Positions 39,172-64,000 of a DNA stretch of 64,000 nt are shown in pieces. Position numbers and translations under genes: made by a program. Position 1 is the stretch's first letter, and each line of letters begins with the position of its first letter. The notes beneath the pieces were generated by a model that searched no databases, was not told where the DNA came from, and saw nothing but the letters and a program-made list of their open reading frames with translations. Source of the stretch: Schmidtea nova (Eukaryota); contig CM097883.1 in the NCBI GenBank assembly GCA_044892505.1, positions 201,438,001-201,502,000 of the forward strand, read 5' to 3'.

Positions 39172-39174
39172 ATG

Positions 39175-39562: not shown

Positions 39563-39580
39563 TGGGAGCTCAGCCGGGAT
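39563..39580 (+). other. Primer binding site, tRNA-Pro-like
   Basis: TGGGAGCTCAGCCGGGAT matches the classical tRNA-Pro PBS TGGGGGCTCGTCCGGGAT at 15/18 positions. Confidence 0.7.
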
Positions 39581-40118: not shown

Positions 40119-40577
40119 ATGGAGAACAAAACAAAAGAAATGCAAACGTTTTTCGAAACAAACAACGAAACAGTGGAGACAATAATGAGGAAGTTAAGAC
40201 GACTCGAGGTAGGAGAATATCACGAACCGACAAACAACACAGAAAGAGCCGAAAGGATGATGAGCTTAAGTGAGAATAAGAACACAGTGGATACAGCAAC
40301 ACGATATCAATGGTATAGAGAAAGATTAAACAACCCTGAGATGAATATCGAGTGCCACAGGCTAGAACAACAGATTGCAACAAAACACGACGAGTGGATA
40401 AGAAGAACAACCGAACATACGAGACAATATCTGACGTGTTACATCTGTGAAATAAACAAAATACAGATAATGTTGTTGCCGTGTGGGCATTTTCGATTCT
40501 GTAATGAATGTAAAATAAATGAACAATGTCCTATGTGCAACCTTCCCGTATCCGAGAAAATAACAGTGTACTTGTAA
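40119..40577 (+). CDS. RING finger protein (IAP/MDM2-type C-terminal C3HC4 RING), 152 aa, no BIR
   Basis: CYICEINKIQIMLLPCGHFRFCNECKINEQCPMCNLPVSEKITVYL at the extreme C-terminus. Confidence 0.85.
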   Translation: MENKTKEMQTFFETNNETVETIMRKLRRLEVGEYHEPTNNTERAERMMSLSENKNTVDTATRYQWYRERLNNPEMNIECHRLEQQIATKHDEWIRRTTEHTRQYLTCYICEINKIQIMLLPCGHFRFCNECKINEQCPMCNLPVSEKITVYL

Positions 40578-42665: not shown

Positions 42666-43626
42666 GTCAACGAGAGATGTCAGTGGAATCAAAGGTGAGA
42701 AGAGATGGGAATTGAAATGAAGTAGTAAACGCAGTGTGAATAGGAAATAAAGCGAATAGTTGAGAAATAGAGTAGTCGACAGATAAGGGGAGATTTGAAC
42801 TCAGAGCCAGAGAAGCCTGAGAAAAGTAAAGGGGATAATAAGAGCGCTGAGCGACAAAGTAATTGGGGAACTGGGGAAAAGTAATTGGTGTATTTGATAA
42901 TGAATAGATAATTGATACGACTGCATAGATAATTTAAATAGACTTAAAATCAAGGGAAATGGGAAAAATGGGGATCTTCATGAATTATGACTACACCCGT
43001 GAGAGGGACGAGAAACACGATAACGGGGACGTATCGTGTAAGTGATTATTTGTTTTAAGGAAACAAATCAATCAAGCAATTCAAAGCAATCTAGCAGTCA
43101 GAGCAATCAAAGGAAACAAATCAAAGAAGAAGCAAAACAAAAGCGAAGTAGAAAATCAGTTGAGAATATAAGAAGTTGAGGAATAGACAAAATTGCGGAA
43201 CGCGAAACAAGGACAGGTATAATACCAATCCTAACAGAAGCAGAAAGAAAAGCAGCAAAAAGGGCAAAAGCAGCAGCTAAATTAGCGCAACAAAAGGTCG
43301 ACACAGAAGCGATCTTAACCGAAGAAGAAAGAAAAGCAGCGAAAAAGACAAGGCCAGGAAATAAAGCAGCGCAACTGAAGAACAAACCAGCAGAGATCAG
43401 CGATAATTCGAGTAATAAAGAGAATCAAGAAGAAATCCCAGAGGATCCAGAAGTACCAAACGAAGAAGAAACGATAGACAGTGAACTAGTCAGTGAAAAC
43501 AGAACAAGAAGCGAATCAAGAGATAACGAAACAGACAATAGTGAAGAAGAAGAGTTGAATCCAGAAACAAGTGGTGAAATAGAAGCAAAGAAAACTAGTA
43601 CAGTATTCCAAGATAGTGGAATCGGG

Positions 43627-45447: not shown

Positions 45448-45803
45448 CGAGAAACGAAAATGAACTAATACAGGAAGTTAGCAAAAACGAAACGAGACCA
45501 ACCGCACATATTGGGATGCTGAGACACCCAAGACAAGAGTTGTCAGATGAAGAAGACGACAGCGAAGTTAGCAGTCTGGCAGGAGACATGCTAAAGGAAC
45601 CGGAAAACGAGGACAAAAAGATGGAAGTAGTCGAGACAATAGAAACGATGTCAGTAAAGGAAGACGAAATTCAGAAGTTGATGGATAATGCGTTAGAAGT
45701 AATCCATAACGAGGAGTATATCGACAAGAAACGATACCGAAAGTTCATACGAGCAGTATGGCAAATGAAGTATAAAGAGTGGTTACAAGAAAGAGAAGTG
45801 TGA
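45261..45803 (+). CDS. Linker ORF in the pol frame, overlapping the gag end (-1 relative to gag)
   Basis: Same frame as the 4234-aa ORF and separated from it only by TGA 45801-45803; acidic protein-like sequence. Confidence 0.55.
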   Translation: MGRYGSNRDENERDDHQRGGTGENPTTSETSNPDQSNIQGKNKTKTVGRKNELEKRMGKAEITRNENELIQEVSKNETRPTAHIGMLRHPRQELSDEEDDSEVSSLAGDMLKEPENEDKKMEVVETIETMSVKEDEIQKLMDNALEVIHNEEYIDKKRYRKFIRAVWQMKYKEWLQEREV

Positions 45804-45830
45804 GTAATACAGGAGTTCATAGAGAAGTTA

Positions 45831-48800
45831 TTGAAAGAACCACTCAACGAATACGTAGTACAAATATGGATAAACGAGTGTTCACCGAGAATCTGGATAA
45901 GGAACCCAATGACGGATGGAATTTACAGATGGGTTGAGGACAGATTGGGAAGCTCCTACAAAGACAAATTCATATATTCGGAAAACGGATTGGTGAGAAA
46001 AGGAACGCATATGATAGACACAGGCATCTGGCCAGGAGAAATAACGACGTTATCTATATGCAACACCAAAAAGGAAGAGAACTTACAAGGGATCGTCAAA
46101 GAAGCGAATATGTGTTACGAGATGAGAATAAAACCTCAGTTGATAGAGACAAAAGAGAGAATCTTGGCGGAGAATTTGAATACGATGATAGAACAGATCA
46201 TCCAGCAAATCAAGAAACATCGAAAGGAATTGACGAAAAGCGAGTATGAGAATTTGAAGCAATGTATCGAGACCATACGAGATACAAGTCAAACGAGGCA
46301 TTCAAACTTCAAAACGGACAAGCTAATCGCAAAGATGGGAAAAGAAATGTTTAAAAGAGGAGAAGTATCAGATCTGAAGATTACCGTGAGATTACCGAAT
46401 GAAGAGACAAGACAAATTGAGGTAATACCAGATAGTAAAGTAGGAGAAATAGTAGATGTCATCAATGAGACGATATTACAACGAGAACGGGAAGATGAAC
46501 TCGAGGATGACATCGCTATAAAATACAAAGAACATCTACTGAACGAACGTGACGAAAGACGAGCGTACAAAATCGGCATATGGGATAATTATCAGACAAT
46601 ACATGTCATCAGAATGGATGATGTGCAAAGAGCAACACCAAGAGATGAGGAAAGGAAAAAGAAACGACAAGAGGACGTTATGCGCAAGTTGAGGCAGATA
46701 GTAGAAATCTATCGTAAATGGCAGATGAAGCCAGAATGGGAGACAATATTGGGAGAATTGGATCTTAACAGACGACGATTGACGCCAGTAGAGAAGCAAT
46801 GGGATAACAAAGAGAAATGTTGGAAAGTGAAAAGAGGCGTGTATGAAGAAGATCCAGAAGGAGAAGACAGATATGAAACGAATACGAAACGGATATGTAT
46901 GGTAACAAGGAGGTTATTACCAACGGACTTAGACGAACCAGAAACTGCAGTAATATGGGCAGAATTGGAGAAACAGAAAACGAATGAATTAATCGAGCTG
47001 TTGAGAGGAAATACTCGGAGAAAAAGACAAACAATAAAAGGCTTAGCACAATTCATAATCACAAATGGAGAAGACATGACGAACTTGAGAAAAGCAGCTA
47101 AAGCGATAGCAGAATACAAGAGAGTTAACGAGTGGTGTCCAGAGCAACTAGACGATGTAATAAAAAAGTGGAGAAACAAAGAGTTTGCGGAAGAAACGCC
47201 ACAGAAAATACATTTGAGGATAATGTATCCAAATCAGAGAAAAGAAGAGTTTTGGGTGATGCTAACAGAAAAAGTGAAGAGTGTTAAAGAGAAACTGATG
47301 TATGAACTACCATTCCACCTGCAACATCAAGGACGATCGTTAGATAACAGTTTGGAAATCTGGCTGACACCAGTACAATTGGATCTAATGAATACGCTAA
47401 CAGTGGCACAGATAGTGGGTCAACCACTGAAGTTTAAAGAGGAAAAGAAAGCGAAAGGAAGCATGAGTACACCAAGTCCGATGAAGTCAACAATGACCAC
47501 AGGAACAAGTTCGGGACAAGCAAGGACAACACCAATAAAAACGAGAGAGAGAACACCGCCAGAAGCGTATGACGTCGATGAGATACTAACAGACAGTGAT
47601 GAAGCGATAGAAGAATTAACAAAGTTGACTCAAAAACCAACGGCGAATATTTTTGACAGAATAATAGAGATGCCAATAACGTCACCAGCAGAAATCGACG
47701 ATCAAGGAGTGGAACAGGAGGTAGTCATAGAAATGGTAAACGATTCGGAAGAAGAGCAAGAACAACCACAGTTTACTCAAGAAATGGAAAGATGGTTAGA
47801 ACAACGAGCAAACGAGGGAAGAGATGTTACAGAAGAAACCGGAAGAGCAACGAGATTTGTAGAAACCGGAACTGGAATGGAAAAACGACCAAGAGGAAGA
47901 CCAAAGATAGACCCAACAACAGCAATTCCAAAGACAAGGGAAGAAAGGAGACAAGAGCAATGGGAGACTTGCTTGAAGAAACTGGATAAAATCGCAGAGA
48001 TCAGAGGCAAAGAGGAGAATCAAGTCTGCCAAGGAGAAGAATGGCTCACCAAAACGATAATGGATGTGTTAGCGATAATTGATCCAGAATTAAGGAATTT
48101 GTGGCGGATAAACGAACCTAGTACAAAGGCAAAGATGCTACACAATGCGATAGCACCAATTATGCCAGAATTGATAAAAGCAAAAACAAAATCGAATCAT
48201 CTAGATTGGCAAGGAACCACGATGTTAATAAAAAGGCTACTTAACGGAGCAGAAACGGACACCAAATATCTAGTAGCAATCTCGTATACGATATACAATC
48301 TACTAACGCTAAGCCGAGGGAGTCCGAAGTCAAGTCCGATGGGAAGACATATCAAAAATACGGCGATGATTATCGAGAAGGAAATTGAACCATATATCCT
48401 CAGAAAAGGAGGATGGGAGAAGTTCATAAAAGAAAACCAGGCGAAAGAAGGTTCTAACGTGATGAGAAAGAAACTCGAAGGAGTATTGAGAGAAATGGAG
48501 AATAGACAAACGATGCAAGGAAACGGAAGATCGACGTTGAATCTAAATTCGATAATCATGATGATGTTAGTATGGTTGTTAAGCACAGAAGGTGTAACAA
48601 CTTTCGAGGTATTTGACTGTGATCAAATGAAGTTGGGAGAAAAGTACTCATTGAGAGGTACGGAGCAATGCAAAGATGCAACTCCAGTAGAGTTAAAAGA
48701 GATTAAAAAAGAACAATGGTACCACGTATATCAAGAGGCAGAACTAATAAAGACAATGGTGAATGAATGCAAAGTGCAAAAGACGAGATTCGCATTCTAT

Positions 48801-51800
48801 TGTGGTAGAGGACATTATTCAGCAATTGTCATGCCAGGAACAGAAAGAGAACCAATCGTGTTGCAAGGAGAAGACTGCGAAGCATTGTTTAAGCATGGAG
48901 AAGTGACAACGAGAGACAAAATCAAGATAAGAGGAAAGCCAGGAATGATGTTACAGCAGACGTATTATGTAGCAGGACGAATTACGGGAGGAGAAGGGTA
49001 TTGTCAAGGAGAAACATACCCAATATTCGGAGTACCCGCAACCAACTTAGTGGTGATGGATACGTACATAGTCGAACTGAAAAGCTACGAAGCATTCTTC
49101 GAACCAACAACAGGAGAAATGAAAACGTTATCCATGAGTAAAATTGACAGAAGCATGTGTCAAACGGGAATGTCAACATTGGTATACAAACCGAAAGTGA
49201 ACGAATGTCAATTACAACTGCTACAAGGAGCAAAGTTCGACGAAATCCAAGGCAAAACGTTCCAAGAAGAGGACGATGACGACAAAGCTAGAGCAAAACA
49301 TCTCAAAGAAGCTTTAGAGAATAAAAGACAATTGAAACCGGATCATAGAGAGAAACGGATAGAGATGAGAACCACACCAACAGTGTTGATAACCACAAAT
49401 CAGGATGTGGGCATGAGATTCATAAAAGGGAAAGCAACCCTTAAGTGCAGTACAACAGTATACGAAACAAACTATCCAGGAATATATGTGTCAAAGCAAG
49501 AAGTACCGAATACGAAACCCAAGATCGACACAATGGATATCAAGCTACACTTGTATGTGAATAATAAAATGGATTTCTTATTCCATAGAGGACAAGCCTC
49601 ATTGCAAAAAGTGTACTACGATCTGATAAATAACGATTGTATACTGAATCGGGAAATATTAAAGACAAAGTTGGCCGTAGCGATTACGAATCCAGATAGC
49701 GCGATGCCGTTATTACCACTGAGAGAAGGACATTTCGGAAGAGTGGTCGGAGAAGCAATGTACGTATACATTTGCGAAAAGACACACGCATCGCTAGCAG
49801 CAACAACGCAGTTGAAACCTGGACAATGTACAAACGAACTAGAAATCGATTATAAAGGAAAAGTACGATACGTTCAACCGGTGACGAGAATTATCAATCC
49901 ACCAGGGTTTGAACCAAATCCATTCAACTGTAGTAATGCGTACGGACCGCTTTATCAGAAGCCAGATGGCAAATGGGTTATGTTCCCAGGAAGAACTGAA
50001 GTATTAGCACCAAGAGAATTTGAGCTAATGCAGTTGTCAAAGGATAGACAGTTCAGCGACGTAGATGTCTCAAACAACGGAATCTATAGTCCAAAGGATC
50101 TAGAAGCAGCAAGGCAGAATATATTATTCCCGGCAAGAAGAGAAGCATTACTGTCAAATATCGTAACGATAACGGGAGGAACGAATTATCGAGAAGGACC
50201 GAATTACGAACTGCTGTTGTCACCGGCACATTTCAAGAAAGCCACAGAAAATATGATGAAGGCAATGTGGGGAAGATTCCTGATATTCGGACAAATGATG
50301 GCTGGAATACTGGGAGTGATATTGATAATACAAATCGTCAGAGTGATAATAACGCAGATGTTAGCGTGTTTCGACATCTACAAGAGAGAAAAGAAAGTGA
50401 ATTGGAAGATGGTAGTAGGATTCTTACCATTCCTTGCGAAAACGATGGTGTTACACGGACACTCAAAAGACATACATCGAATAAAGAGGTTGTTGAAGAT
50501 ACTTGCGAAAATGAGAGGAACAAACGAAGATGTCGGAAGGAAATTCAAAAAGATTATACAAGACGAGCAAGCAAGACGACAACTAAAGAAAGAAAGGAAA
50601 GGATTATGGGAAAGAGTAAGGGGATATCGAACACAAGATGATTCAAGCAACGACGACGATGACGATGACGATCGAGGAGGACAAGCGAATATAAACCAGA
50701 TTCCACAGTATAACGAAAAGAGTGCAGTTGAGAATTGGAGATACAGCGCTCCACCCCAGTCAATGTATAACGAACCTATATATAAAGCGAAGCCGAATAT
50801 GATGCAGATGATGCCGATGACAAGTATATACCCGATAATTCCAGAAGACTGCAAAGTAAAACGAGGTAGAAGCGTAGACTCGTTGGAAGACACGCACACG
50901 ATAGCGGTTATGTCCACAAATATGGGACCGATTTTAACAACAACCGTAGAAATAAACGGAAGAGAAATCGAAGCAATGATCGATACAGGCGCGAATATTT
51001 CGGCAATCGACATCAATTATATACCCGAGAAAAATCAAGGAGAAATCGAGAAGACGAATGTACATGTAATCGCGTGCAGTCAGGAGACAGTAGAAGTAGC
51101 CGGAAGATGGTTTGTAAAAATTAAGCATCGAGGTGCAGAAATCAACACGTACATCGCTGTAATACCATCGCTGAGTGTACCATGTATTATTGGAACTGAC
51201 CTGATGCCAGACCTGTTCAAGGAAATCGTAATTGATCTAGGAGCAATGAAACTAAAAGATAGAACAGGAAAAATCTGCAGAATGAAAGTTAAAGTGGCAA
51301 GCACGGAACAAATAGTAGTGCCAGCGAGACATGAAATGATGTGTTATGTAAAGATCGATTCAACAATAAAGGGAGATATGATATTCGAACCCAGTAAGAA
51401 GTTCGAAGCGAAGAAAGAATTACCAATGGCAAGAGAATTGGTTACGATAAACCAAGAAGGAGAAATACCGATCAATCTGGTAAACTTCGACGAAGAGGAC
51501 AAGATAATATACGAGAATGAGAATTTGGGTAAATTGACACCCATGTCCGAAATCGAAATACCAGACAAGAATGAGAAAGGCAAAGGCGAATTACCATGGA
51601 AAATCGACAGTATGTTGTTAGACGAGCAACAAAAAGAACAGTTACAGAAACTGTTGATGGAGTATCAAGACATATTCGCAGCATCAGATCTGGATTTAGG
51701 AACATGTGACGTAACATTACATACGATACCGTTGACAGACGAGACGCCAATCGCATTAAGACCATATAAACTGGCAGAAGCTCAAAAAGCAGTGGCAGAA

Positions 51801-54800
51801 GAAGAGGTACAAAAGATGTTAGATGCAGAGGTCATCGAACCCAGTTGCTCACCCTGGCAATTCCCAGTGGTGATGGTGAAAAAGAAGGATGGAACTCAGA
51901 GATTCTGTATCGATTACAGACGATTGAACGCAGTTACGAAAAGAGATACGTACCCACTGCCAGACATAAATGAAATGTTGTTGACGCTACAAGGAGCAGC
52001 CTATTTCACGTCACTGGATTTAAAGAGCGGATATTGGCAGATCAAAATGAAAGACGAGGATAAAGAAAAGACAGCTTTCACAATCGGACGAGATCTGTAC
52101 CAATTCAAGAAAATGCCGTTTGGGTTAACAAACGCGCCACCATCATTCCAGAGATGCATGAATTTCGTAACACATGGCATAAAACAATGCATGGTGTATA
52201 TCGACGATCTATTGATCTACTCCGCAACATTTGAAGATCATTTACAAGACATCAGAAATGTGTTCGTGAAATTAAGGCAGTGGAAACTGAAATTGAAGCC
52301 GTCAAAGTGCGATTGGGCAAAAGAGAAAGTGACATTCTTAGGTCACATTGTATCAGCAAAAGGAAAAGAACCAGATCCAAGGAATATCGAAAAAGTCAAA
52401 GAATGTCCACCACCAAAGACAGTGACTCAAATACAAGAATTTTTGGGATTGTGTGGATATTATCGAAAGTTTATCAAGGACTATGCAGGAATATCAAAGC
52501 CAATGCAAGAATTAGTAAGACAAGACGTGTCGTTTGTATGGGGACCAGAACAGCAAGCAGCATTTGAAACATTACGAGATAAGCTGATTACAGCACCAAT
52601 ATTGGTCCATCCAAACTTTAAGAAGCCATTTCTGTTGGCAACAGACGCAAGTGGATATGCAGCAGGAGCAGTACTAGGCCAATTTGACGAAGAAGGCAAG
52701 GAAAGAGTAATCGGATATTACAGTCGAACCTTCAGGAAGCATGAAAAGAATTACTCAGTCACGGAAAGAGAAGCCTATGCGATAATATTGGCAATCAAGC
52801 ATTTCAAATACCTATTGTGGGGTCATGAGATATATATTACAACGGATCATCAACCATTGGTATGGTTAGGTCAACATAAAGAATCATCAAGTAGATTGAT
52901 GCGTTGGGCGATGCAACTACAAGAATACTCGCCATTCATAAAGTTTAAAGCAGGAAAAGCAAATGCGAACGCAGATTGCATGTCAAGATTTACATTCCCA
53001 GAATTGGTGAACCTAAACGCTCTGAAAATATGTGCATTAATAGCGGAGGATTTGGATTTCAACGAATTAAGGAAAGATCAACTCGAAGAGGAAGAGTTGG
53101 GATTGATCAGCAAGTACTTGAAAGAAAGGGAAATAGAAAAATTCGGCAAGAACCAAATGTTGCGCGAACATATGCAGAAATATCAACATAGATATGTGAT
53201 GGAAAAAGGATGGTTATTGATACAAGATGGAGAACGAAGATTAATGTGCTTACCTGCGAATAGACGAAAGGAAATCATGACTCAATATCATGACGGAAAA
53301 TTAGGCGGACATATGTCAGCAAAAAAGACAATAGGGAGATTGAGACAAAAGTATTTTTGGCCAACCATGGAAGATGATGTGAAGGAATGGATAAAGAACT
53401 GCTTAACCTGTGCGACAAGAAAGAACGTCGGAACAAAGTGGAAAACACCACTAAAACCAATGCCAATACCTGCAGAACCAATGGCAACAATAGCAATGGA
53501 TGTAGTTGGGCCATTGCCGGAAAGTTTAAAGGGGAATCAATATATCTTAGTAGTCACGGACTACCTAACGAAGTTCCCAGAAGCGTTCGCAATACCAGAT
53601 CAAAAGGCGAAAACAGTCGCGAGAATATTGGTGGAAGAGATATGCTGCAGATACGGAACACCAAAGAAAATCCTAACGGATCAAGGAACAAATTTCATGA
53701 GTGAAATATTAGACGAAGTAACGAATTACTTCCGAATCGCGAAATTACGAACATCCCCATACCATCCACAAACGAACGGTCAAACAGAAAGGTTCAATGG
53801 AACATTGATACGCATGTTGTCAAATTACGTCAGTAAACATCAAACTGACTGGGACGAATATATTAACTTGTGTTTAATGGCATATAGAATGTCAATACAT
53901 GCGGCAACAAAGCTAAGTCCATTCCAACTAATGTACGGAAGAGATTACAACTTACCGATCGATTTAGAATACCAACCACCATTATCGCAGTACATGGAGG
54001 TTGACGATTACGTTACAAAGTTCAAAGAAAGAATGCAAGAAATCTGGAAAACGGCGGAACTAAACATCAAGTTCTATCAAGAGAGTTACAAGGATCTACA
54101 TGATCAGAAAAAGAATGTGAAAGCACATGATTTAAAAGTTGGAGATTGGGTGATAATCGAAACACCAGAGATAATACCCGGTACGGTGAAGAAACTCCAA
54201 CGACCAGGCAAAGGGCCATATGAAATCACGACAGTGAATGAAAACAATGTGCGAGTACGATTGGTGAACAATCCATTGGTAAGACCAATATACGTGAACG
54301 CATGTCGATGCAGGAAAATACCAAAGACAGCAACTCTATCACCAGAGAAACGGGTGATGACAAGATCACAGACGGCGAGAATTAATATGTTGCGAGTACA
54401 ACAAAAGCCGCAAACAAGTCTAGAAGACAACCGAAGAGGAGCAACGGATATCAAAGAACTGGCAAAGAGGACCAGAGAAATTATACCAGAATGGAAATGG
54501 TGGTTCGATTTCAATATACTGTCAGAAGTACGGAAAAACGTAATGGAGTATGCGAAGGATAGAACAGGGCATCCAATAACAAGAACGCTGCTAGAGGAGA
54601 TCCCGCAAACGTTTAATTTACAAGACAAAGACGGTAACACAGCGTTGCACAATGCAATCAAGCACAGTGGGAACGAAAAAGTGAAAGAGATCGTAGAGAT
54701 GATACTCGAAGGTGGGGGAGAAATTGACAAAGTGAATTGGGAAGGAATCACTCCACTCATGATGATGACAATTCATGGAAGAAACGATGAAATAGTCAAG

Positions 54801-57800
54801 CTATTCGGAAACACCAGATCAAATTGGATGACAAAAGATAAAGAAGGACGAACATTCTTGAATCATGCAATTGACAGAGCAAATCACCGAATACTGAAGT
54901 ATATCACGGAAAATGCCACGTGGGAAATCGATGAACTAACCAGAGGATCGATCATGAAACAAGCAATCGGAGTTAGAAACAGTAAAACCTGGAGAATATT
55001 GCTAAAGTGGAAACGACCAGAAGGAGATTCGTGGGTCGTAGATTGTAATGAAGTATTCACAAGGGGAGAAAATGCGTTACTGAAACATCTATTAGAAGTA
55101 GCATACGATCCAAAAACACTTGCAGTGTTGATAGCGAGAGATACGTTACGGGTTAGCGAAAACCCAAGAGAATACAAGTTGGATGACCGAAAGAAGGAAC
55201 TATTCGGATTAATCAAGAAATGGTGTGATAAGCAATGGAATCCGGATATGAGCTTCGAACATTTTTATGACATCCAAAAGCAGCACAAAGAAATAAGCAA
55301 GCGATATAAAGAGCTGGTGGAAGCATTGAAGTATGGACAATTCTTCAGACAAGCAGTGTATCAAGACCAACGGATGAAACAGATGCAAACACGAATAAGA
55401 AGCAAAGCAGTGTTGTTCAATGCAAAAGCCGATTATCAAGAGAGATTAGACGCAATCGTAGCAAAAGCACAGGAAAAATTATCGGAATTCAAAGAGAATA
55501 AAAACTCGTTGGAAATACTAGGAGCAATTACAGAGAAAGTACACAGATACGCACAAGGAGATTATAACGAGAGTGACATAGAAACGATCAAAAATCAAAT
55601 GCCAGTAGCATTCCTATTATCAAAGGATGGGAAATTGCCGATACACTGGGCATTACGTCGAAGGAAAGAAAACGAAGTGCTAGAAATAACAAAAGCGATG
55701 GTCAAGTGCGAAGCAGACATGAATACGGTTGATGATAATGGAGACACAGTCATGATAATCGCAGCAAGAAAGAAGACGAACTTTAAAGTGCTAAGTAAAT
55801 TTTACGAAGCAGGAGCAAAAATTGAAGGGAAAAATGGAAAGAATAATTCCATCACAGATATCGCAATACAGTGGAACAACTTCGAGATGATCAAGTTCAT
55901 AAAGTCCATCAAGAAACAAGATGATATAGAATACCTGGCAAATAACGTAAAGAATTTCAGTCTGACAGTAATGATACACGACGTAGAGAAAACAAGAGCA
56001 TTACTAACATGGGTGAATCCGATCACCAAGGAACCAGTGTTCAAGATCAATGACCATATGGAACAGAATCAGAATTGGTGTATCAGAAGCGCGTTATTAA
56101 GACACAAAAAGCCAGAGATAGTAGAAGAATTCCTAAAGAGAAGAGATTTGAAATTCACGAACAACCCAAAGGAACAGGAACGAATGGGAAGATGGAAAGA
56201 CTTATTCAGAAAATATGTGAAGGAGTGGGCAAATGCCAAAGAAACGATCAAGCAAAGTGGACTAAAAGACATAGAACCATCCAAGGATATGGAAATACGT
56301 GAATTCGAGTCTAGCACACTCGCAGTTCAAGCGTATGAAAGATTGATTGAAGAAATTAATGTCGAGGACGACATTTCGAAAGGACCAGGGGGTGGTTACA
56401 GAGACTTCGACGACAAAAGTAACAATGAAAAGAACAACGAAGACAATGACAACAAAAGAACAGAGGATAATGGAAAAGAAAGACAAGAAGAACCGAAACC
56501 AACGAGAAACGACAAGAAAGGAGAAGCCGAAGAACGAGAAAACAGTGGAACAAAAGACGAACGTACGAACTATGGAAAACGAACAGGAAGTCTACTTTTG
56601 AGACCAGAAATGTTGTGTATTGCGATATTGATAACAATCATCGGACAAGGAGAAGCCAAGAAACAATACGTCACGCTAGAGATAATCAGAGGAAATGAAG
56701 TATACGAAAAAATATGCTGGAAAGAAAACATGAGGAAAAACGATACGCTGAAGTGTATATTGTCAGATTTGAAGCGAGACGTCATCCAAATCAAAGGATT
56801 GGAGAAAGAAAAGTCATACATAATATGCGCAATAAAGCAGAGAGGAGAACCAAAAGCACCTCAAGTAACTGCGTGTCAATTATATAAAGCAACAGAAGCG
56901 CTGAAAATACAGAAATGGGTTGGGAAAAGAAGTGAAGAGACAACGAGAAGAACAGAAGTGGAATCAGAGAAAGGGAAGAATCAATCTGAAGCAGAAGAGG
57001 GAATCAGAAACCGAACAGAGAAAGAAAGAATAACCAAAAATCCAGCGGGCAAATTAACATTCCAACCAGAATTGATATGTGTAGCATTAATATTAATCCT
57101 TATTAAGAGAATCATGGAGGACATAGATATCAGCGTGATGACGTTAGTAAATATCCAAGACCAACGAACAACGAATGGAAGATGTTGGGGACGAAACAAT
57201 GAAGTAATGGGAATCAGCGAAACAAGAGAAAGTCGAGAAGCAGAGACAAATGAAGAAATCGAAATAACAGAAATAGAGACAGATAAAAAATGTGAACTAT
57301 GTCTCATGGAAAAGGCAGCAAACGGAAACAGACCAGGAACAAGCGAGTGTAAAGTGTTCCAAGCAAAGGAGATAATTGAGTTCCCAAAAAGAAAGAAACA
57401 AGATCAAGAAATGATTGCGAATGAAGTAGTAACAGTGGAGATAAAAAACATTGATCGGAGAACAATTGGGATGTGTTGGAGAAAATACATCGGAGTATCG
57501 ACCAACATCATAATACCGCAATGTAGAACGAGAGAACGAGGAATCCCGTTTCCACTAAATGGATTCGAAGTCGGACAAGCATACGAAATCTGCATAATCC
57601 GAAGAATAAGAGAAGTAATACAAAGAAGCCTGGAGTGCAAACTGTACAAGACGCCAGAGCAAATTAACGGAACGAGAACGATTGAAATGGGAAGAAGTCG
57701 ACAGAGGAAAAGAAAGTCAAGAAGAATCACGACAACCAACAGTCAAGGAACTCAACAGACAACAACAGAAAGGACGACAATAGAAAACGAACCGGAATCA

Positions 57801-58535
57801 ACAACGTTGATAATATGGAAGATCCATAAAAAAGTCCTAGAAATCTGTTGGACATTAATGCCAAACAGTATGGGAAAGTCCCCACGAAACTGTCAAAAGA
57901 CATCAAATAATAAAGGAGAAATAATCGAGGTAGAAATGAGGAAGTTGAAAACAAACGCAGAATACGAAGTATGTGCAATCGAAGAAGTGGACGCACAAGG
58001 AAATCCACAGGAAAGGTGCGACACCTATTACACGCCAAAGAACATAACAACCAAAAGGAGAATCAGAAAGTTAGAATTCAGAGAATTGAGCCTAAAAAGA
58101 GAACAAACAGAGACGGAAGAAGCAACATCTAGTCAACAAGAAAGATGGGAACCAGAGAAAGTGATCGAAGAAGTCAGACGGAGACAACAACAATATGAAC
58201 AATGGGAAGCAGAATGGAAAGGTCAATATGGCGTGATGATAAACCAAAGTGAAACTCCAAAAAGGAGCATTGGAAAAACAATAATGGGATTAATCAGTAT
58301 GGGAGTATTCATAGGGTGTATACCGCTGATAACGATCATGATAGTATGTTGGAGATATGGCATGAGAAATAAGACCATAGCAGTAAAATGGCCGGACGTA
58401 AAGGTCACGAATTACAACATAAAACTACCAAAAGCAGTACGAGAAGAGCTGAAAAGACGATCAAAACACGAAGAGATGTGGGTACAGATCGAAGACGAGG
58501 AACTGTACGAAGGAAAACCAGTGATAGTTGTATAG
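45831..58535 (+). CDS. pol: 4234-aa polyprotein: Ubl-like / Bcl-2-like / Env / PR / RT / RNase H / IN / ankyrin / FN3-like + TM
   Basis: Single uninterrupted frame (open from 45804; listed start is TTG) containing all the domains listed below. Confidence 0.95.
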   Translation: MKEPLNEYVVQIWINECSPRIWIRNPMTDGIYRWVEDRLGSSYKDKFIYSENGLVRKGTHMIDTGIWPGEITTLSICNTKKEENLQGIVKEANMCYEMRIKPQLIETKERILAENLNTMIEQIIQQIKKHRKELTKSEYENLKQCIETIRDTSQTRHSNFKTDKLIAKMGKEMFKRGEVSDLKITVRLPNEETRQIEVIPDSKVGEIVDVINETILQREREDELEDDIAIKYKEHLLNERDERRAYKIGIWDNYQTIHVIRMDDVQRATPRDEERKKKRQEDVMRKLRQIVEIYRKWQMKPEWETILGELDLNRRRLTPVEKQWDNKEKCWKVKRGVYEEDPEGEDRYETNTKRICMVTRRLLPTDLDEPETAVIWAELEKQKTNELIELLRGNTRRKRQTIKGLAQFIITNGEDMTNLRKAAKAIAEYKRVNEWCPEQLDDVIKKWRNKEFAEETPQKIHLRIMYPNQRKEEFWVMLTEKVKSVKEKLMYELPFHLQHQGRSLDNSLEIWLTPVQLDLMNTLTVAQIVGQPLKFKEEKKAKGSMSTPSPMKSTMTTGTSSGQARTTPIKTRERTPPEAYDVDEILTDSDEAIEELTKLTQKPTANIFDRIIEMPITSPAEIDDQGVEQEVVIEMVNDSEEEQEQPQFTQEMERWLEQRANEGRDVTEETGRATRFVETGTGMEKRPRGRPKIDPTTAIPKTREERRQEQWETCLKKLDKIAEIRGKEENQVCQGEEWLTKTIMDVLAIIDPELRNLWRINEPSTKAKMLHNAIAPIMPELIKAKTKSNHLDWQGTTMLIKRLLNGAETDTKYLVAISYTIYNLLTLSRGSPKSSPMGRHIKNTAMIIEKEIEPYILRKGGWEKFIKENQAKEGSNVMRKKLEGVLREMENRQTMQGNGRSTLNLNSIIMMMLVWLLSTEGVTTFEVFDCDQMKLGEKYSLRGTEQCKDATPVELKEIKKEQWYHVYQEAELIKTMVNECKVQKTRFAFYCGRGHYSAIVMPGTEREPIVLQGEDCEALFKHGEVTTRDKIKIRGKPGMMLQQTYYVAGRITGGEGYCQGETYPIFGVPATNLVVMDTYIVELKSYEAFFEPTTGEMKTLSMSKIDRSMCQTGMSTLVYKPKVNECQLQLLQGAKFDEIQGKTFQEEDDDDKARAKHLKEALENKRQLKPDHREKRIEMRTTPTVLITTNQDVGMRFIKGKATLKCSTTVYETNYPGIYVSKQEVPNTKPKIDTMDIKLHLYVNNKMDFLFHRGQASLQKVYYDLINNDCILNREILKTKLAVAITNPDSAMPLLPLREGHFGRVVGEAMYVYICEKTHASLAATTQLKPGQCTNELEIDYKGKVRYVQPVTRIINPPGFEPNPFNCSNAYGPLYQKPDGKWVMFPGRTEVLAPREFELMQLSKDRQFSDVDVSNNGIYSPKDLEAARQNILFPARREALLSNIVTITGGTNYREGPNYELLLSPAHFKKATENMMKAMWGRFLIFGQMMAGILGVILIIQIVRVIITQMLACFDIYKREKKVNWKMVVGFLPFLAKTMVLHGHSKDIHRIKRLLKILAKMRGTNEDVGRKFKKIIQDEQARRQLKKERKGLWERVRGYRTQDDSSNDDDDDDDRGGQANINQIPQYNEKSAVENWRYSAPPQSMYNEPIYKAKPNMMQMMPMTSIYPIIPEDCKVKRGRSVDSLEDTHTIAVMSTNMGPILTTTVEINGREIEAMIDTGANISAIDINYIPEKNQGEIEKTNVHVIACSQETVEVAGRWFVKIKHRGAEINTYIAVIPSLSVPCIIGTDLMPDLFKEIVIDLGAMKLKDRTGKICRMKVKVASTEQIVVPARHEMMCYVKIDSTIKGDMIFEPSKKFEAKKELPMARELVTINQEGEIPINLVNFDEEDKIIYENENLGKLTPMSEIEIPDKNEKGKGELPWKIDSMLLDEQQKEQLQKLLMEYQDIFAASDLDLGTCDVTLHTIPLTDETPIALRPYKLAEAQKAVAEEEVQKMLDAEVIEPSCSPWQFPVVMVKKKDGTQRFCIDYRRLNAVTKRDTYPLPDINEMLLTLQGAAYFTSLDLKSGYWQIKMKDEDKEKTAFTIGRDLYQFKKMPFGLTNAPPSFQRCMNFVTHGIKQCMVYIDDLLIYSATFEDHLQDIRNVFVKLRQWKLKLKPSKCDWAKEKVTFLGHIVSAKGKEPDPRNIEKVKECPPPKTVTQIQEFLGLCGYYRKFIKDYAGISKPMQELVRQDVSFVWGPEQQAAFETLRDKLITAPILVHPNFKKPFLLATDASGYAAGAVLGQFDEEGKERVIGYYSRTFRKHEKNYSVTEREAYAIILAIKHFKYLLWGHEIYITTDHQPLVWLGQHKESSSRLMRWAMQLQEYSPFIKFKAGKANANADCMSRFTFPELVNLNALKICALIAEDLDFNELRKDQLEEEELGLISKYLKEREIEKFGKNQMLREHMQKYQHRYVMEKGWLLIQDGERRLMCLPANRRKEIMTQYHDGKLGGHMSAKKTIGRLRQKYFWPTMEDDVKEWIKNCLTCATRKNVGTKWKTPLKPMPIPAEPMATIAMDVVGPLPESLKGNQYILVVTDYLTKFPEAFAIPDQKAKTVARILVEEICCRYGTPKKILTDQGTNFMSEILDEVTNYFRIAKLRTSPYHPQTNGQTERFNGTLIRMLSNYVSKHQTDWDEYINLCLMAYRMSIHAATKLSPFQLMYGRDYNLPIDLEYQPPLSQYMEVDDYVTKFKERMQEIWKTAELNIKFYQESYKDLHDQKKNVKAHDLKVGDWVIIETPEIIPGTVKKLQRPGKGPYEITTVNENNVRVRLVNNPLVRPIYVNACRCRKIPKTATLSPEKRVMTRSQTARINMLRVQQKPQTSLEDNRRGATDIKELAKRTREIIPEWKWWFDFNILSEVRKNVMEYAKDRTGHPITRTLLEEIPQTFNLQDKDGNTALHNAIKHSGNEKVKEIVEMILEGGGEIDKVNWEGITPLMMMTIHGRNDEIVKLFGNTRSNWMTKDKEGRTFLNHAIDRANHRILKYITENATWEIDELTRGSIMKQAIGVRNSKTWRILLKWKRPEGDSWVVDCNEVFTRGENALLKHLLEVAYDPKTLAVLIARDTLRVSENPREYKLDDRKKELFGLIKKWCDKQWNPDMSFEHFYDIQKQHKEISKRYKELVEALKYGQFFRQAVYQDQRMKQMQTRIRSKAVLFNAKADYQERLDAIVAKAQEKLSEFKENKNSLEILGAITEKVHRYAQGDYNESDIETIKNQMPVAFLLSKDGKLPIHWALRRRKENEVLEITKAMVKCEADMNTVDDNGDTVMIIAARKKTNFKVLSKFYEAGAKIEGKNGKNNSITDIAIQWNNFEMIKFIKSIKKQDDIEYLANNVKNFSLTVMIHDVEKTRALLTWVNPITKEPVFKINDHMEQNQNWCIRSALLRHKKPEIVEEFLKRRDLKFTNNPKEQERMGRWKDLFRKYVKEWANAKETIKQSGLKDIEPSKDMEIREFESSTLAVQAYERLIEEINVEDDISKGPGGGYRDFDDKSNNEKNNEDNDNKRTEDNGKERQEEPKPTRNDKKGEAEERENSGTKDERTNYGKRTGSLLLRPEMLCIAILITIIGQGEAKKQYVTLEIIRGNEVYEKICWKENMRKNDTLKCILSDLKRDVIQIKGLEKEKSYIICAIKQRGEPKAPQVTACQLYKATEALKIQKWVGKRSEETTRRTEVESEKGKNQSEAEEGIRNRTEKERITKNPAGKLTFQPELICVALILILIKRIMEDIDISVMTLVNIQDQRTTNGRCWGRNNEVMGISETRESREAETNEEIEITEIETDKKCELCLMEKAANGNRPGTSECKVFQAKEIIEFPKRKKQDQEMIANEVVTVEIKNIDRRTIGMCWRKYIGVSTNIIIPQCRTRERGIPFPLNGFEVGQAYEICIIRRIREVIQRSLECKLYKTPEQINGTRTIEMGRSRQRKRKSRRITTTNSQGTQQTTTERTTIENEPESTTLIIWKIHKKVLEICWTLMPNSMGKSPRNCQKTSNNKGEIIEVEMRKLKTNAEYEVCAIEEVDAQGNPQERCDTYYTPKNITTKRRIRKLEFRELSLKREQTETEEATSSQQERWEPEKVIEEVRRRQQQYEQWEAEWKGQYGVMINQSETPKRSIGKTIMGLISMGVFIGCIPLITIMIVCWRYGMRNKTIAVKWPDVKVTNYNIKLPKAVREELKRRSKHEEMWVQIEDEELYEGKPVIVV
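45849..47417 (+). other. Two to three ubiquitin-like domains in polyprotein (45849-46061 weak; 46371-46613; 47202-47417)
   Basis: LKITVRLPNEETRQIEVIPDSKVGEIV..YKIGIWDNYQTIHVI and IHLRIMYPNQRKEEFWVMLTEKVKSVKEKL..HQGRSLDN..TLTV follow the beta-grasp pattern. Confidence 0.6.
47961..48440 (+). other. Bcl-2-like domain in polyprotein
   Basis: BH3-like CLKKLDKIAE, BH1-like LLNGAETDTKYLVAISY (NWGR not conserved), BH2-like EPYILRKGGWEKF (GGW at 48408-48416). Confidence 0.55.
48537..50460 (+). other. env: Envelope glycoprotein, class III fusion type (chuvirus/Monjiviricetes G-like), in frame upstream of protease
   Basis: Signal-like IIMMMLVWLLSTEG; FDC..YSL..C, ECKVQKTRFAFYCG.GH, YETNYPGIY, LHLYVNNKMDFL, DCILNREIL, VGEAMYVYIC, GIYSPKDLEAARQNILFPARREALL; TM 50277-50372. 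Confidence 0.8.
50930..51220 (+). other. Aspartic protease domain
   Basis: VEINGREIEAMIDTGANISAI (DTG at 50982) and CIIGTDLM. Confidence 0.95.
51780..52400 (+). other. Reverse transcriptase domain (Gypsy)
   Basis: SPWQFPVVMVKKKDG..FCIDYRRLN, LDLKSGYWQI, KTAF, MPFGLTNAPPSFQR, YIDD (52197-52208). Confidence 0.97.
52630..52990 (+). other. RNase H domain
   Basis: LATDASGYAAGAVL, NYSVTEREAYAI, TDHQPL, RLMRW, ANANADCMSR. Confidence 0.95.
53289..54320 (+). other. Integrase (HHCC + DDE core + GPY)
   Basis: HDGKLGGH..CLTC, IAMDVVGPLP, LTDQGTNF, YHPQTNGQTERFN, GKGPYEI. Confidence 0.96.
54612..55905 (+). other. Two ankyrin-repeat clusters (54612-54910 and 55614-55905)
   Basis: DKDGNTALHNAI, NWEGITPLMM, DKEGRTFLNHAI; KDGKLPIHWAL, DDNGDTVMIIAA, GKNNSITDIAI. 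Confidence 0.85.
56592..58349 (+). other. Four Cys-containing FN3-like repeats with two signal/TM-like segments and a C-terminal TM helix
   Basis: Repeats share C-W, L/F-x5-Y-x-[IV]-C and terminal C-x2-[YF]; hydrophobic PEMLCIAILITIIGQGEA (56592-56657), PELICVALILILI (about 57054-57110), TM IMGLISMGVFIGCIPLITIMIVC (58281-58349). Confidence 0.6.
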
Positions 58536-58660: not shown

Positions 58661-59011
58661 ATGAACCAAGAAAATATCGAAACGTCAATGATGACGAGAT
58701 GGAAAGTACAATGTGACCTGCTAGCCAGAACAGTAAATGAATTACAGAGCCAGTTGACGGCCAAAACGCAATTATTAACCGAGAGTTATAACTGTAATTT
58801 CGAAGCGATGAACAAAATCGAGATCCAACAAATGCAGATAAACGAATTACAGAACGAGAACCGAACATTAAATGAAGTGAACAACTGGCAAGCAGAGGAA
58901 ATTGATCGATTAACGAGACATGAAGAGGAGGAGATACCGGATAGTTGGACAAGCTGGATTGTAAATGAGATAGACGTGTATCCAGAGCCAGATTCAACTG
59001 AGGATGTATAG
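58661..59011 (+). CDS. Accessory coiled-coil protein, 116 aa
   Basis: ATG start, heptad pattern, same strand and composition as neighbours. Confidence 0.7.
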   Translation: MNQENIETSMMTRWKVQCDLLARTVNELQSQLTAKTQLLTESYNCNFEAMNKIEIQQMQINELQNENRTLNEVNNWQAEEIDRLTRHEEEEIPDSWTSWIVNEIDVYPEPDSTEDV

Positions 59012-59100
59012 TGAATAAGCGGAAAATTGTGTAAAAACGTGTAAATAAAGAATCAGAAAAATCAAAAATATGGGGAAATTGATGTAAATATTGTTGTAGA

Positions 59101-60513
59101 ATGAGAGCAGAAAGTGAAACAGATTACCAAACAATCGAGATTCTAAGAGGAGAGAACCGACAATGGGGAGTAAATGTGACATGTGTAAAGTGTAAAAATT
59201 TACTGTTAAAACCGAGACAAACGGAATGTGGATGCAGGATGTGCACCAAATGTATACTACAAATAATCAGTGAAAGTGAGACAAGAAAGTGTCCAGAGTG
59301 TGACGATAAACTACTGATCAACGAGACGAAACCAGACAAAGCAATACAAAAGGAGATCTGGAAGATAAAAACCGAATGTATAAACCAACCATGTGAATGG
59401 AAAGGACAAATAATCGAGCTAAGACAACATCTGGAGAAATGTGAAAACAAGAAAGCTATATGTGAAAAGTGTCAGCAGACGATAACCATCAAGCAGTCGA
59501 AAAATCACAAGGATAAGTGCAAAGCAGAGATAATAGAGTGTCAATACTGCGAACAAAGAGAGACGAGAGAAGTAATCGAAACAGAACATCTCAACGTAGT
59601 AGAAGAGAAAGTGTGTGGAAAATTCAGAGGAATTTGTCCAAGTAATTGTGGAGCCGGAGAAGAAGTGATGTTGAGAGAACATTGGGAACAATGCGAATCA
59701 AGACCAAGAAAGTGCGTATGGAGTAAACAAGGATGTGCAGTAAAGAGAACGAGAAAAGAGATGAAAGAGCATTTAGAAACTGAAACGGTACAACACGCAG
59801 AGATGTTAACAGAAAATTTAAACGGAATGGAACAAACCATACAGAAACTGGGAAAAGAAATCGAATCCCAGAGGATAATGACGGAGTTATTACTGGAAAC
59901 GAGAGAGCAATTCGAGCTCACCAGAGAGAAAATGATGGAGAAAATCAAAGTCATAGAGACGCTAGTAAAGGAGGTAAATGTACGACATCAAATATGGGTG
60001 CGAGATGCAGAGGATATCGAGAATTTACCGGTCGCACCATATGTATGGAAAATCAAGAACTTCAACGACAAGTTCACAGCAGCAAAAGCAGGAAGTCAGG
60101 TGTCGGTAACAAGTCCACCATTCTATCTGTGGAAAAACGGATACAAAGTTCGAATGAGAATTTATCCAAATGGAGATGGATCAGGAAAGGAAACGCATGT
60201 GTCATTATTCTTTGCGTTGTGTAAAGGTGGTTACGACGACATATTAGAATGGCCGCTAGAAACAAAGGCTATAATGAGAGTGAAAAACTCGAAAGAAACA
60301 ATAGCGAGAGTATTCAAAATTGATGGTAAGCACGAAGCTTACAAAAGACCAACCACAGAATGTTCATTAGCGACTGGAGAACCAAAATTCATACCACACC
60401 AAACAATGTGGGAAATGTTGTTCGACGACAACCTATACGTAGAATTGGAAATCGAAAAGAAAGCAAGTACAACAGTGATGAACACGAAGTCAACGAAAGG
60501 ATGGTTAGAGTAG
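59101..60513 (+). CDS. Full-length intronless TRAF homologue (RING, TRAF zinc fingers, coiled coil, MATH), 470 aa
   Basis: CVKC..PRQTECGCRMCTKC..CPEC, DKAIQKEI..CINQPCEWKG..HLEKC, YVWKIKNF..SPPFY..GYKVRMRIYPNGDGSGKETHVSLFF..YDDILEWP. Confidence 0.93.
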   Translation: MRAESETDYQTIEILRGENRQWGVNVTCVKCKNLLLKPRQTECGCRMCTKCILQIISESETRKCPECDDKLLINETKPDKAIQKEIWKIKTECINQPCEWKGQIIELRQHLEKCENKKAICEKCQQTITIKQSKNHKDKCKAEIIECQYCEQRETREVIETEHLNVVEEKVCGKFRGICPSNCGAGEEVMLREHWEQCESRPRKCVWSKQGCAVKRTRKEMKEHLETETVQHAEMLTENLNGMEQTIQKLGKEIESQRIMTELLLETREQFELTREKMMEKIKVIETLVKEVNVRHQIWVRDAEDIENLPVAPYVWKIKNFNDKFTAAKAGSQVSVTSPPFYLWKNGYKVRMRIYPNGDGSGKETHVSLFFALCKGGYDDILEWPLETKAIMRVKNSKETIARVFKIDGKHEAYKRPTTECSLATGEPKFIPHQTMWEMLFDDNLYVELEIEKKASTTVMNTKSTKGWLE

Positions 60514-60602: not shown

Positions 60603-61763
60603 ATGGAAAACGCAAATGAACCTGTAACCGAAGATGAAACGAGAAGTGAGATGTTGAACGAACAAGAAACAATAGAAAGAGAAATCGAAAGGAGATGTAA
60701 AATGGAAGTGGAACAAAGAACCAGAGAATTACACGAAGTGATGACAAACAATTTCTACGAGAAATTAAAATGTGAGAGACGAATGGAGTTATATCAACTG
60801 GAACTCGAGGAAGTGAATAAAGAGATGATACAACTGACAACACAAATAGAGAAGCTAAAAGGAACGAATGTGCGAAGTCGACAGAAGATAGAAGAGGTCT
60901 ATCAGTTGATGAGGAAACAAGCAGAACATTATAAAAATATGATGAAAACGCGAAGAGAAGAGAGGGAGAAACAAGAGGAAAAGATGGAGGTAAAGATACT
61001 AGCAATCAAAGCTCAAGCGAGACATTGGAAGATGGAGTCGAAACGAGTGTATAAAGAAGCCAAAGAGATAATCAGAAGGACAGCATATAGCGAAGATTGG
61101 AAACTGTATCAAGAAATCGACGAATTGAAAGAAGAATTAGAACAGAGAAAGAGACAAGAACAGACAAACAAAGAATGGAGTCGAAAACGGCAACGATTTA
61201 TTCGAGAGCAAGCAAAGGAACTAAAGAAAACGCAATGGCAAATACAGATGATAAATGGAGAAATGCGAGGCATTAGACAGAAAGAGGAAGCGGAAAGACA
61301 AAAGTTGATCAGGGAAAAAGAAAGTCTGGAAAGAGATGTAAATGGTTACCAAGGTGTGATGACCCAAAAGAAAATGGAACTGAAAGCTGTGAAGGAAAGA
61401 CATGCGGAATCAAACCGAGCGTATGAAGAAAATATAACGAATTTGACGAAAGAAAACGAAGAACTGAAACAACAAATAATAACCCTGAAAGCAGAGAAAG
61501 AAACCATAGAAGTAGAAACCGAACCAACAGAAGTAGAAGCCCTGAAGAGAAAAGTGGAAGAGATGGAAAGACAAATTGAAACTCTGAGCGAACAATCAGA
61601 CTATATGGAGTATCTGTTAGACGAGGAAATACAAACCTCGAGAACGTATCAAAACGAAATTGCAATGTGGAGAAGCAGAGTGGTGTGGTTACCGTTTATA
61701 CCACCGCCACCAATGGAGCTCCAAGACGAAGGGTTCCATGAACCAGAGGAAACGGATGTGTAA
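60603..61763 (+). CDS. Accessory long coiled-coil protein, 386 aa, ends ETDV
   Basis: ATG start, E/K/R/Q-rich heptads throughout. Confidence 0.75.
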   Translation: MENANEPVTEDETRSEMLNEQETIEREIERRCKMEVEQRTRELHEVMTNNFYEKLKCERRMELYQLELEEVNKEMIQLTTQIEKLKGTNVRSRQKIEEVYQLMRKQAEHYKNMMKTRREEREKQEEKMEVKILAIKAQARHWKMESKRVYKEAKEIIRRTAYSEDWKLYQEIDELKEELEQRKRQEQTNKEWSRKRQRFIREQAKELKKTQWQIQMINGEMRGIRQKEEAERQKLIREKESLERDVNGYQGVMTQKKMELKAVKERHAESNRAYEENITNLTKENEELKQQIITLKAEKETIEVETEPTEVEALKRKVEEMERQIETLSEQSDYMEYLLDEEIQTSRTYQNEIAMWRSRVVWLPFIPPPPMELQDEGFHEPEETDV

Positions 61764-61837: not shown

Positions 61838-62361
61838 ATGAACTGGCTCAAAACCCTACCAATCCTAACAATTATGTTAACTGCAACAATCATGAACTGT
61901 TCGACAACCGAAATTCAAAGAACCCTGTCAAATGAGATATCCCAAGAGATTGAAAAACAACTAACGAAGTCAGAGAAGACTTGAAACAATTAATCCGACA
62001 AATGCGAACCAGTCATGATCATCGCAAACCTTTAAAAACCCTATTCAAGCAAATCGAGAAGATCCGAGAAATCCATAGAACATTGCAAGAACACCTAAAG
62101 CCAATCAAAGGTCAAACCCAAATCGAATCCGAAATCCGAAACAGATGGATCATCGTCGGAATAGTCACAATGACAATATTGACAATCATCTTGATCATCG
62201 TGATCACGTATACCCTATATCGAATCAGAAGCCTCAAACAACAACAAATGATAATGTGTAGATGCGCCAAAAGAGAAGCAAAAACCCAACAGAGAATGAG
62301 AAGTCATCTACGACAAATTCAAGCCCGATACGAAATGCAGTCAACCAGTGAAAGGACCTGA
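61838..62361 (+). CDS. Small type I membrane protein split by one frameshift (61838-61984 signal-peptide part; 61954-62361 TM part)
   Basis: MNWLKTLPILTIMLTATIMNCS.. from ATG 61838 stops at 61984; the -1 frame is open from 61954 and holds TM WIIVGIVTMTILTIILIIVITYTLY. Confidence 0.55.
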
Positions 62362-62563: not shown

Positions 62564-64000
62564 TGTTGGGCCAGCCAAATCGAGCAGCATCTGAAAATAA
62601 TGTACAATCAATAAAATAAATTTACAACAGAATAACAACAAAATAAATTACCAACACCAAAGCGTAACAAGATAGGCGGCAACATCTGAAGGAAATAAAG
62701 TATTAATCAAAACAACAAAAATCTTCAAAACTCACTCATGCGAAGCAGATAAAATTGGAATATGACAGCGCGTGGGCGGATGTCACCGAAGAGCTAAAAC
62801 AAAATCAAATAAAAATTAAATCATACAAAAAATAAACTTACCGCATGATTAACCAAATAAATCAGTGAGTTAAGTTAGGCAGCAAAAAGCCGACAACATG
62901 AAAAAATGAAGCAAACATACACACATACTCGATGCTGATTGGCTAACCAACAACACCGGTTCAGTATAAATACTGAAGTCAAATCAGTATTTGACAATGT
63001 CATTTTTTACTGAGTGTGAAGTATCAGCAGAACTTGTAACTGATTTGGAAGCCGCAATAAAAGGTAATTTGGAGTTATGTTTTGATGTATCTAAACCCTC
63101 ATAATTATTTGTAATCATGATAAAATCAATAAGGTTTTCCGGAGGCCTAACAGCCTGACGGATTCTTGGGGCCTCTCAGCGCAACACAATCTTTCGGTTG
63201 TGAGGTGCTGATGCGGCGGGACCATAGGTTTACTAAATACTTAGTAAATGGAAGGGGGATAAATGCACATAGGATGTCTACTACCATCGTAACATCAGTA
63301 TGGGTAAAAGCAATCGAAGGAGGTATTATCTGTCACGACGACATCGAGCAAATAAGTGTACGTAACAGGCGGGTTAATAGATCAATAGGGCATCTAGCGT
63401 TCGTGAAGTCGAGTAAAGTAGCGACGGTTTTGTGCCGAGGATATGTATCATGATAAATAACCCCAAGTTGGATAAATTGAGCACTGACGATGGTAGAGCT
63501 ATACAACGCATAAGTCATGTGAGTTCAGAGGCTGACAGTGCTAGCGTCAGAGGTAAACCATGAATCAACAAGGCATCCCAACATATATATATACACCTCT
63601 CGAAGGGTACGAGGGATAGACCCCACGGATATTTAATGATAGTACGATCCGTACCCAATTAACCTGAGTAAGGGATTGATCATGTTCCCCGGATGATGTG
63701 ATCATTGGTAGTTGATAATGATGTTTGGAGATAAAACCTGAGGAGTGATTGAGCATGATTGCTGTAAATATAAACTAAAAATGTCTCGTAGATAATAACA
63801 TTCAAACATAATGAACGGTCAAGCGATCACTGTAGATGAAACCAACTTATCATAAACGGCACGATGAATTATGCGTGGCCAAGCAATCGATAGAGTAAAT
63901 GCATTCACCAACAATGATAATAAAATACGACCTACATGATATCGCAAACATCGGACCGGTTCAACACTGAACCACCGACTGAAGCCTACAGAGTTTCACC
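62564..64000 (+). repeat. 3' LTR (truncated by window end)
   Basis: Matches 36263-37697; I see four substitutions and one 2-bp (TA) indel. Confidence 0.95.

Follow-up and report, generated by a model that had tools for sequence, protein, structure and literature searches.

The stretch of Schmidtea nova DNA analyzed here (the window, 64,000 nucleotides) holds a full-length TRAF gene within a 29.6 kb Burro-like Gypsy element with an env-like domain. The LTRs of this element, at 36263-39556 and 62564-65859, are 99.4% identical, have TG...CA ends and are flanked by a target-site duplication, TAAG. The element belongs to family A of five related families (A-E) compared below, and its features are as follows.

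36263..39556, + strand: 5' LTR, 3294 bp, TG...CA; the target-site duplication TAAG lies just before it
39563..39580, + strand: primer-binding-site-like sequence, directly after the 5' LTR
40119..40577, + strand: 152-aa ORF with a C-terminal IAP-type RING (zf-C3HC4_3, 4e-9), without BIR
43180..45803, + strand: Gag region, CCHC knuckles present; the frame shifts between 45258 and 45447, and an in-frame stop lies at 45801-45803
45804..58535, + strand: 4243-aa frame with viral fusion glycoprotein (7e-71), protease, RT, RNase H, integrase, ankyrin repeats and a membrane-anchored C-terminal tail
58661..59011, + strand: 116-aa coiled-coil accessory ORF, the upstream neighbor of TRAF in each of the five families; dN/dS 0.065
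59012..59100, + strand: spacer of 89 nt in which TGTAAA/TGTA.ATA motifs recur; an acceptor-like TTGTAG stands 2-4 bases before the TRAF ATG
59101..60513, + strand: full-length TRAF; all-Cys RING 28-67, five zinc fingers 93-232, coiled coil 229-306, MATH 314-451
60603..61763, + strand: 386-aa coiled-coil accessory ORF, ending in ETDV; dN/dS 0.11
61838..62361, + strand: small signal-peptide/transmembrane ORF, in two frames in the window copy and a single 197-aa frame in family D
62564..64000, + strand: start of the 3' LTR, which runs beyond the window to the equivalent of 65859, followed by the target-site duplication TAAG

The intron-free TRAF ORF encodes 470 aa (ATG at 59101, stop at 60511-60513) and has the full TRAF2/3/5-type order of RING, zinc fingers, TRAF-N coiled coil and MATH. 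Pfam assigns MATH_2 (8e-27), TRAF-mep_MATH (3.5e-25), zf-TRAF (1e-5) and TRAF3_RING (1.4e-4), and the closest solved sequences are TRAF5, TRAF3 and TRAF2 (PDB, E 1e-27 to 1e-24). A single-sequence fold reached a pLDDT of 41, and an alignment-based model (mean pLDDT 86) was used instead; it presents a 78-residue helix at 229-306 (pLDDT ~90) and a MATH domain of eight strands, for which fold comparison picks out solved TRAF1/2/3/5 domains (E 1e-17). The C-terminal TRAF-type MATH domain is thus seen by Pfam above cut-off, by PDB sequences and by fold match. Eight predicted zinc ligands (C28, C31, C43, C45, C48, C51, C64 and C67) make up the RING, where Cys takes the place of the customary His (CGCR), and five Cys/His sets align in the zinc-finger region across an alignment of 31 proteins. 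Together with the LTRs and target-site duplication, Pfam and the model confirm what a sequence-only reading of this DNA had proposed, namely a complete TRAF gene inside a retroelement. The element-like, A/G-rich codon usage described in that reading is equally well borne out: the RSCU correlation of the gene is 0.91 with the gag-env-pol frame of the element versus 0.57 with host TRAFs, and T occupies 6% of four-fold sites versus 17-41% in eight host TRAFs. The peptide-binding residues of TRAF2 are given as R393, Y395, D399, F447, S453-455 and S467 in the accessible part of PMC1334386. Mapped via frog TRAF2, four of these eight are kept in the element MATH domain (R353, Y355, D359 and F405), the serine triad is replaced by H411-E412-A413 and S467 by T425. 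Because the replaced triad and S467 also vary between element families, canonical receptor binding by the element TRAF is doubtful.

The Gypsy domain order PR-RT-RH-IN is present in the element, and the env-like fusion domain (PF24664) precedes the protease, in frame between gag and pol. An unbroken frame of 5076-5114 aa is found in 26 of 115 sister copies; the window copy is broken in the gag region. We take the sequence at 39563..39580 to resemble a tRNA-Pro primer-binding site. Ankyrin, RING and MATH represent the Burro-type cargo; BIR is present in family E and absent from family A, where the IAP-type RING ORF is without BIR and there is no BIR gene. BCL2-like cargo was sought by Pfam in the element, with no BCL2 match. 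The 152-aa RING ORF has orthologues in families B, D and E and in a family with MATH in its polyprotein. Two ORFs in the 5' LTR (37783-38418 and 38572-39171) have no Pfam match, and no family was found for the 386-aa coiled-coil ORF, for which an atlas search gave nothing usable. The polyprotein tails (window 56600-58535; locus L064:2999-4750) carry a transmembrane segment as well as fibronectin-III-like repeats, which Pfam identifies as fn3 in L064; the tail may thus be a receptor-like product. Spacers of 74-125 nt (58536-58660, 59012-59100, 60514-60602 and 61764-61837) separate the genes at the 3' end, and TGTA.ATA occurs five times in 377 spacer nt versus none in 15657 coding nt (shuffle mean 0.09). 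These motifs may serve as signals for poly(A) addition or splicing, or be of the Pumilio type. YAG stands a few bases ahead of most accessory ATGs. Families A-D all retain the acceptor-like motif before the TRAF ATG, and within family A it is present in 28 of 30 copies; no canonical splice donor is common to the family A, B and D leaders. The leader before gag holds a 19-bp tandem array and an 85-90-bp spaced repeat (window 41427-41913 and 42267-42675). The 127 bp to the left of the element match its right flank in inverted orientation at 98% (window 35553-35679 and L031:2864-2990), and the element likely inserted inside a palindromic or inverted-repeat element.

Absence of the gene from sister copies, which the sequence-only reading had named as the mark of a one-off transduction, is not what we find. 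Family A sister loci were defined by an integrase match of at least 95% identity, which gave 115 loci among the matches listed, and TRAF sequence lies at the expected place in 108 of these. A TRAF match stands at the right distance in 91 of the 115, among the matches listed, and reading the other 24 gave 11 full genes, one near-full, five partial and seven loci without TRAF, all seven of which also lack the upstream ORF. Every one of the 30 TRAF loci read lies in element sequence (one, L030, internally rearranged), no internal stop interrupts 87 of the best 90 copies, and a deletion of most of TRAF is common to two family A copies (L123 and L127). The check on selection that had been suggested points to purifying selection, with a dN/dS of 0.082 for TRAF and 0.033 for its RING part over 30 family A copies chosen as best protein matches, a choice that lowers dN; values in family B (0.112, six copies) and between families B and D (0.125 at dS 1.0) nevertheless agree. 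Variants shared among copies are 120 synonymous and 43 non-synonymous, against 272 and 1138 sites, respectively. The ORFs neighboring TRAF have similar dN/dS (0.065-0.26), so selection does not single out signalling. The element TRAF is intact, under purifying selection and, by that selection, functional.

An orthologue of the gene occupies the same slot in four further families, at 45-54% identity to the window TRAF in families B, C and D and 35% in family E, and the order of small ORF, TRAF and coiled-coil ORF is common to all five. Families B (about 107 listed loci assigned by frame length, six read) and C (13 listed loci) were exposed by a search with a relative, family D came from the integrase list (two read) and family E from a BIR search. 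Summed over families, the element TRAF loci number at least ~330 among the matches listed; the ~3000 candidates of a first look are not copy numbers. As to the suggested count of TRAFs between LTRs, element loci (at least ~330) outnumber host MATH matches (73) among the matches listed. In family E (L149:3885-6729, L153 and L157-L176), whose 4-4.4-kb LTRs are 99.9% identical, a BIR-RING IAP gene lies directly after TRAF in 25 of 26 loci read, with another BIR in the 26th. Two family E copies read are without env, RT, RNase H and integrase, and the family is large and young, since its best 88 TRAF matches are all at least 99% identical. In a sixth family MATH occurs by itself within the polyprotein, an arrangement also described for Burro1.

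In two of three family C copies read (L105-L106 and L183 vs L181) the protease runs straight into the ankyrins without RT-RH-IN, and the ankyrins of these RT-less copies are ~80% identical to family A versus 41% in the complete copy; they are likely a recombinant non-autonomous line. The env of a family B copy (L101) is 96.8% identical to that of family A (window 49104-50603), with flanking domains at 68-78% and the family D env at 81%, and a recent exchange of the env module between families A and B is likely. The coiled-coil ORF ends in ETDV, ETLV, ETIV or ETFV (window 60603-61763; L091, L134, L149 and L140), and the last ORF of the MATH-in-polyprotein family ends in ETLV. These ET-V ends are presumably a class I PDZ-binding-like motif that has been kept. 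The open frame of family D (L134-L139) has 5140 aa, the length reported for ORF1 of a Dugesia tigrina Burro-like element in the part of PMC6431247 available to us, which may be chance.

In trees that include host paralogues, as had been proposed, the element TRAFs form one branch and fall with planarian Cys-RING TRAFs (100/99). Families A-D group with support of 99/98; with family E and a protein designated P0001 they form one branch at 95/95 under the mixture model, and the elements alone at 80/70. P0001 stands on a long branch and, by this grouping, may be an element TRAF. Near-duplicates and short pieces were dropped from these trees (10 of 48 rows in one and 9 of 31 in the later ones). Biased composition and long branches can draw element TRAFs together in trees; their common descent is independently supported by the shared gene order. 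The MATH domain of the polyprotein family (L063) also groups with them (96/91 under LG+G4, 92/88 and 90/90 under the mixture model), which is suggestive. The element TRAFs are thus likely the product of one old capture from a planarian Cys-RING TRAF, and the element-like codons argue for long residence, a claim of the earlier reading with which the five diverged families and their single branch are in accord. Two other arguments of that reading fall. The gene does appear to be a captured host TRAF, but its lack of introns is not proof of retro-capture: in nine host paralogues a single frame spans RING to MATH, and a gene of this kind could be captured without losing introns. Likewise, the His-to-Cys change in the RING is real but not an element trait, since 16 of 17 distinct host RINGs read have this Cys, and Cys occupies the His site in 16 of 202 RING-bearing homologues, including some echinoderm TRAF3-like proteins. 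A direct homologue search with the element TRAF returned only four distant proteins, and a profile search of 1.84 billion representatives gave none closer than 33% identity among 268 listed, within which no element TRAF from another species was identified. A host TRAF of the source genome is 70% identical to a Dugesia japonica protein, in keeping with a planarian host.

The nearest named relatives are planarian host TRAF2-like proteins (Dugesia japonica TRAF-2-like A and Dendrocoelum TRAF-4), at 28-33% identity. Such proteins, including Smed-traf-2, share the domain order and the all-Cys RING and often a single coding frame, according to the accessible parts of PMC7586133, PMC8807557 and PMC6109357, whereas the element TRAFs differ from them in A/G-rich codons, an altered peptide groove and hundreds of copies. 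The giant Gypsy elements of Schmidtea mediterranea (Burro1/GYPSM1 and Burro2-4) are described in the available sections of PMC6431247 as ~30 kb long, with LTRs, a single-frame gag-env-pol and cargo of ankyrin repeats, RING, BIR and MATH_TRAF_C, and the Dugesia tigrina Burro-like element as having 5,140 aa and MATH on a separate accessory ORF. Compared by description only, our element resembles these in its size, long LTRs, gag-env-pol frame and ankyrin, RING and MATH cargo. However, those sections of the review name only a MATH domain, in the polyprotein or an upstream ORF, whereas in the element described here a complete TRAF lies downstream of pol, and its history is followed through five families by means of selection analysis and trees. 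The B-IAP of Burro1 (Lee et al. 2026, Dev Cell, as cited in the accessible part of PMC13465017) is likewise a captured apoptosis regulator in a planarian giant retrotransposon, and a BIR-RING gene is also found in family E; functional tests exist for B-IAP, whereas the role of TRAF is predicted. A host TRAF was likewise captured by a virus-like parasite in the case of ORF111L of the iridovirus ISKNV, an independent capture by a DNA virus whose product binds TRADD and promotes apoptosis (PMC3352826, in part), and models of iridovirus and giant-virus TRAFs exist. Burro cargo already described in print thus includes a MATH domain and an anti-apoptotic IAP. Searched for complete TRAF genes in Burro or LTR elements, the literature outside subscription papers, Repbase and supplements yields only PMC6431247, with its MATH domain, and no account of a full TRAF, of one old origin for it or of a TRAF-IAP pairing.

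TRAF2 partners cIAP, and the adjacency of TRAF and IAP in family E recalls this pair. By analogy, the reading that we favor, and hold to be somewhat better than an even prospect, is that the element TRAF is a survival adaptor that works with IAPs against cell-death or stress signalling where the element is active. It would form a trimer and partner host or element IAP ubiquitin ligases in the manner of TRAF2-cIAP; in family A, which has no BIR gene of its own, this would call for an IAP supplied by the host or by a different element family. The acceptor-like motif before the accessory ATGs suggests that TRAF may be expressed from a spliced or trans-spliced sub-genomic RNA, and gaps of ~100 nt are reported for Macrostomum operons (PMC8629364, in part). 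Four sequencing runs of unstated type cover a host intron without a break and are therefore DNA. A survival benefit to element-bearing cells would parallel Burro1 B-IAP, which reportedly protects stem cells from apoptosis (PMC13465017, accessible part), and the host gene traf-2, knockdown of which harms survival (PMC8807557, accessible part). Selection would act through the element, with copies that carry a working TRAF transposing more. The viral ORF111L promotes apoptosis rather than blocking it, as stated in the available portion of PMC3352826, so the effect of the element TRAF on death could run in either direction; a further counterpoint is that the MATH-in-polyprotein family manages with MATH alone. 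A bolder extension, which we offer tentatively and think rather improbable as a whole, is that an ancestral giant retroelement captured both halves of a TRAF-cIAP pair as an operon-like cassette read out by splicing or spliced-leader trans-splicing, that its copies now constitute most TRAF genes of the genome and restrain stem-cell death to mutual benefit, and that the RT-less family was amplified as a TRAF-IAP carrier.

The altered groove can also be read as that of a decoy. As a dominant-negative, the element TRAF would join host trimers via its coiled coil and dampen the innate-immune or stress signalling directed against the element, which we consider possible though fairly unlikely. The loss and variability of the serine triad across families and the long branches that separate element TRAFs from all host TRAFs are in keeping with this, and the env-like domain makes a virus-like counter-defense plausible. 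However, planarian host TRAFs also deviate from the triad (S-A-C and S-T-C), the RING and the five zinc fingers are under the strongest constraint, beyond what a simple decoy would need, and the side-by-side TRAF and IAP genes of family E are in keeping with an active module. Less probable still is a role internal to the element, in which TRAF would bind the membrane or coiled-coil proteins of the element in ubiquitin-dependent trafficking or assembly with little effect on the host. This would suit the way TRAF keeps its place between the 116-aa and coiled-coil ORFs throughout the five families, a groove altered to fit a private ligand, and the fusion of MATH into the polyprotein in one family. 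Against it, the ends of family A proteins hold no conserved canonical TRAF-binding motif, and family E keeps TRAF and IAP even though the two copies read have no env, RT or integrase.

The sequence-only reading had further suggested that such elements contributed to the expansion of host TRAFs, which is already described in planarians (accessible parts of PMC6109357 and PMC7586133). We regard as very improbable the version in which the intronless Cys-RING host TRAFs arose from an early element copy and elements fed the planarian expansion. The nine host paralogues intronless between RING and MATH would be expected under such a transfer, and the AU test does not reject a tree that places the elements as sister to this whole host group (p 0.19). 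However, no host gene is nested among element TRAFs among the seven in the trees, nesting of the nearest host pair (L062 and L093) is rejected (AU p 0.0008), and the host genes have host-like codons. Among the matches listed, 150 for MATH were scored; place and frame mark 73 of them as host genes, and 63 of these 73 lie in one tandem region (G000:C2:400-456 Mb), where many genes are two-exon with a Cys RING; four genes of this type form their own branch (99/99). Host TRAF expansion thus appears to be mostly a separate tandem cluster, and the suggested contribution of elements is not supported. A one-off transduction or neutral passenger, to which the deletion or breakage of some copies might point, is ruled out by presence in 108 of 115 copies, a dN/dS of ~0.1, conservation in five families and fully element-like codons.

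Our findings extend the known cargo of Burro elements from a MATH domain to a whole TRAF that is kept across five families and tied to an IAP gene. This suggests that retrotransposons, like large DNA viruses, may carry a working part of TNF-type survival signalling. When planarian TRAF/MATH transcripts are counted, element copies may be included along with host genes, given the balance of element and host loci among the matches listed, and the element TRAF offers a direct test in a tractable regeneration model.
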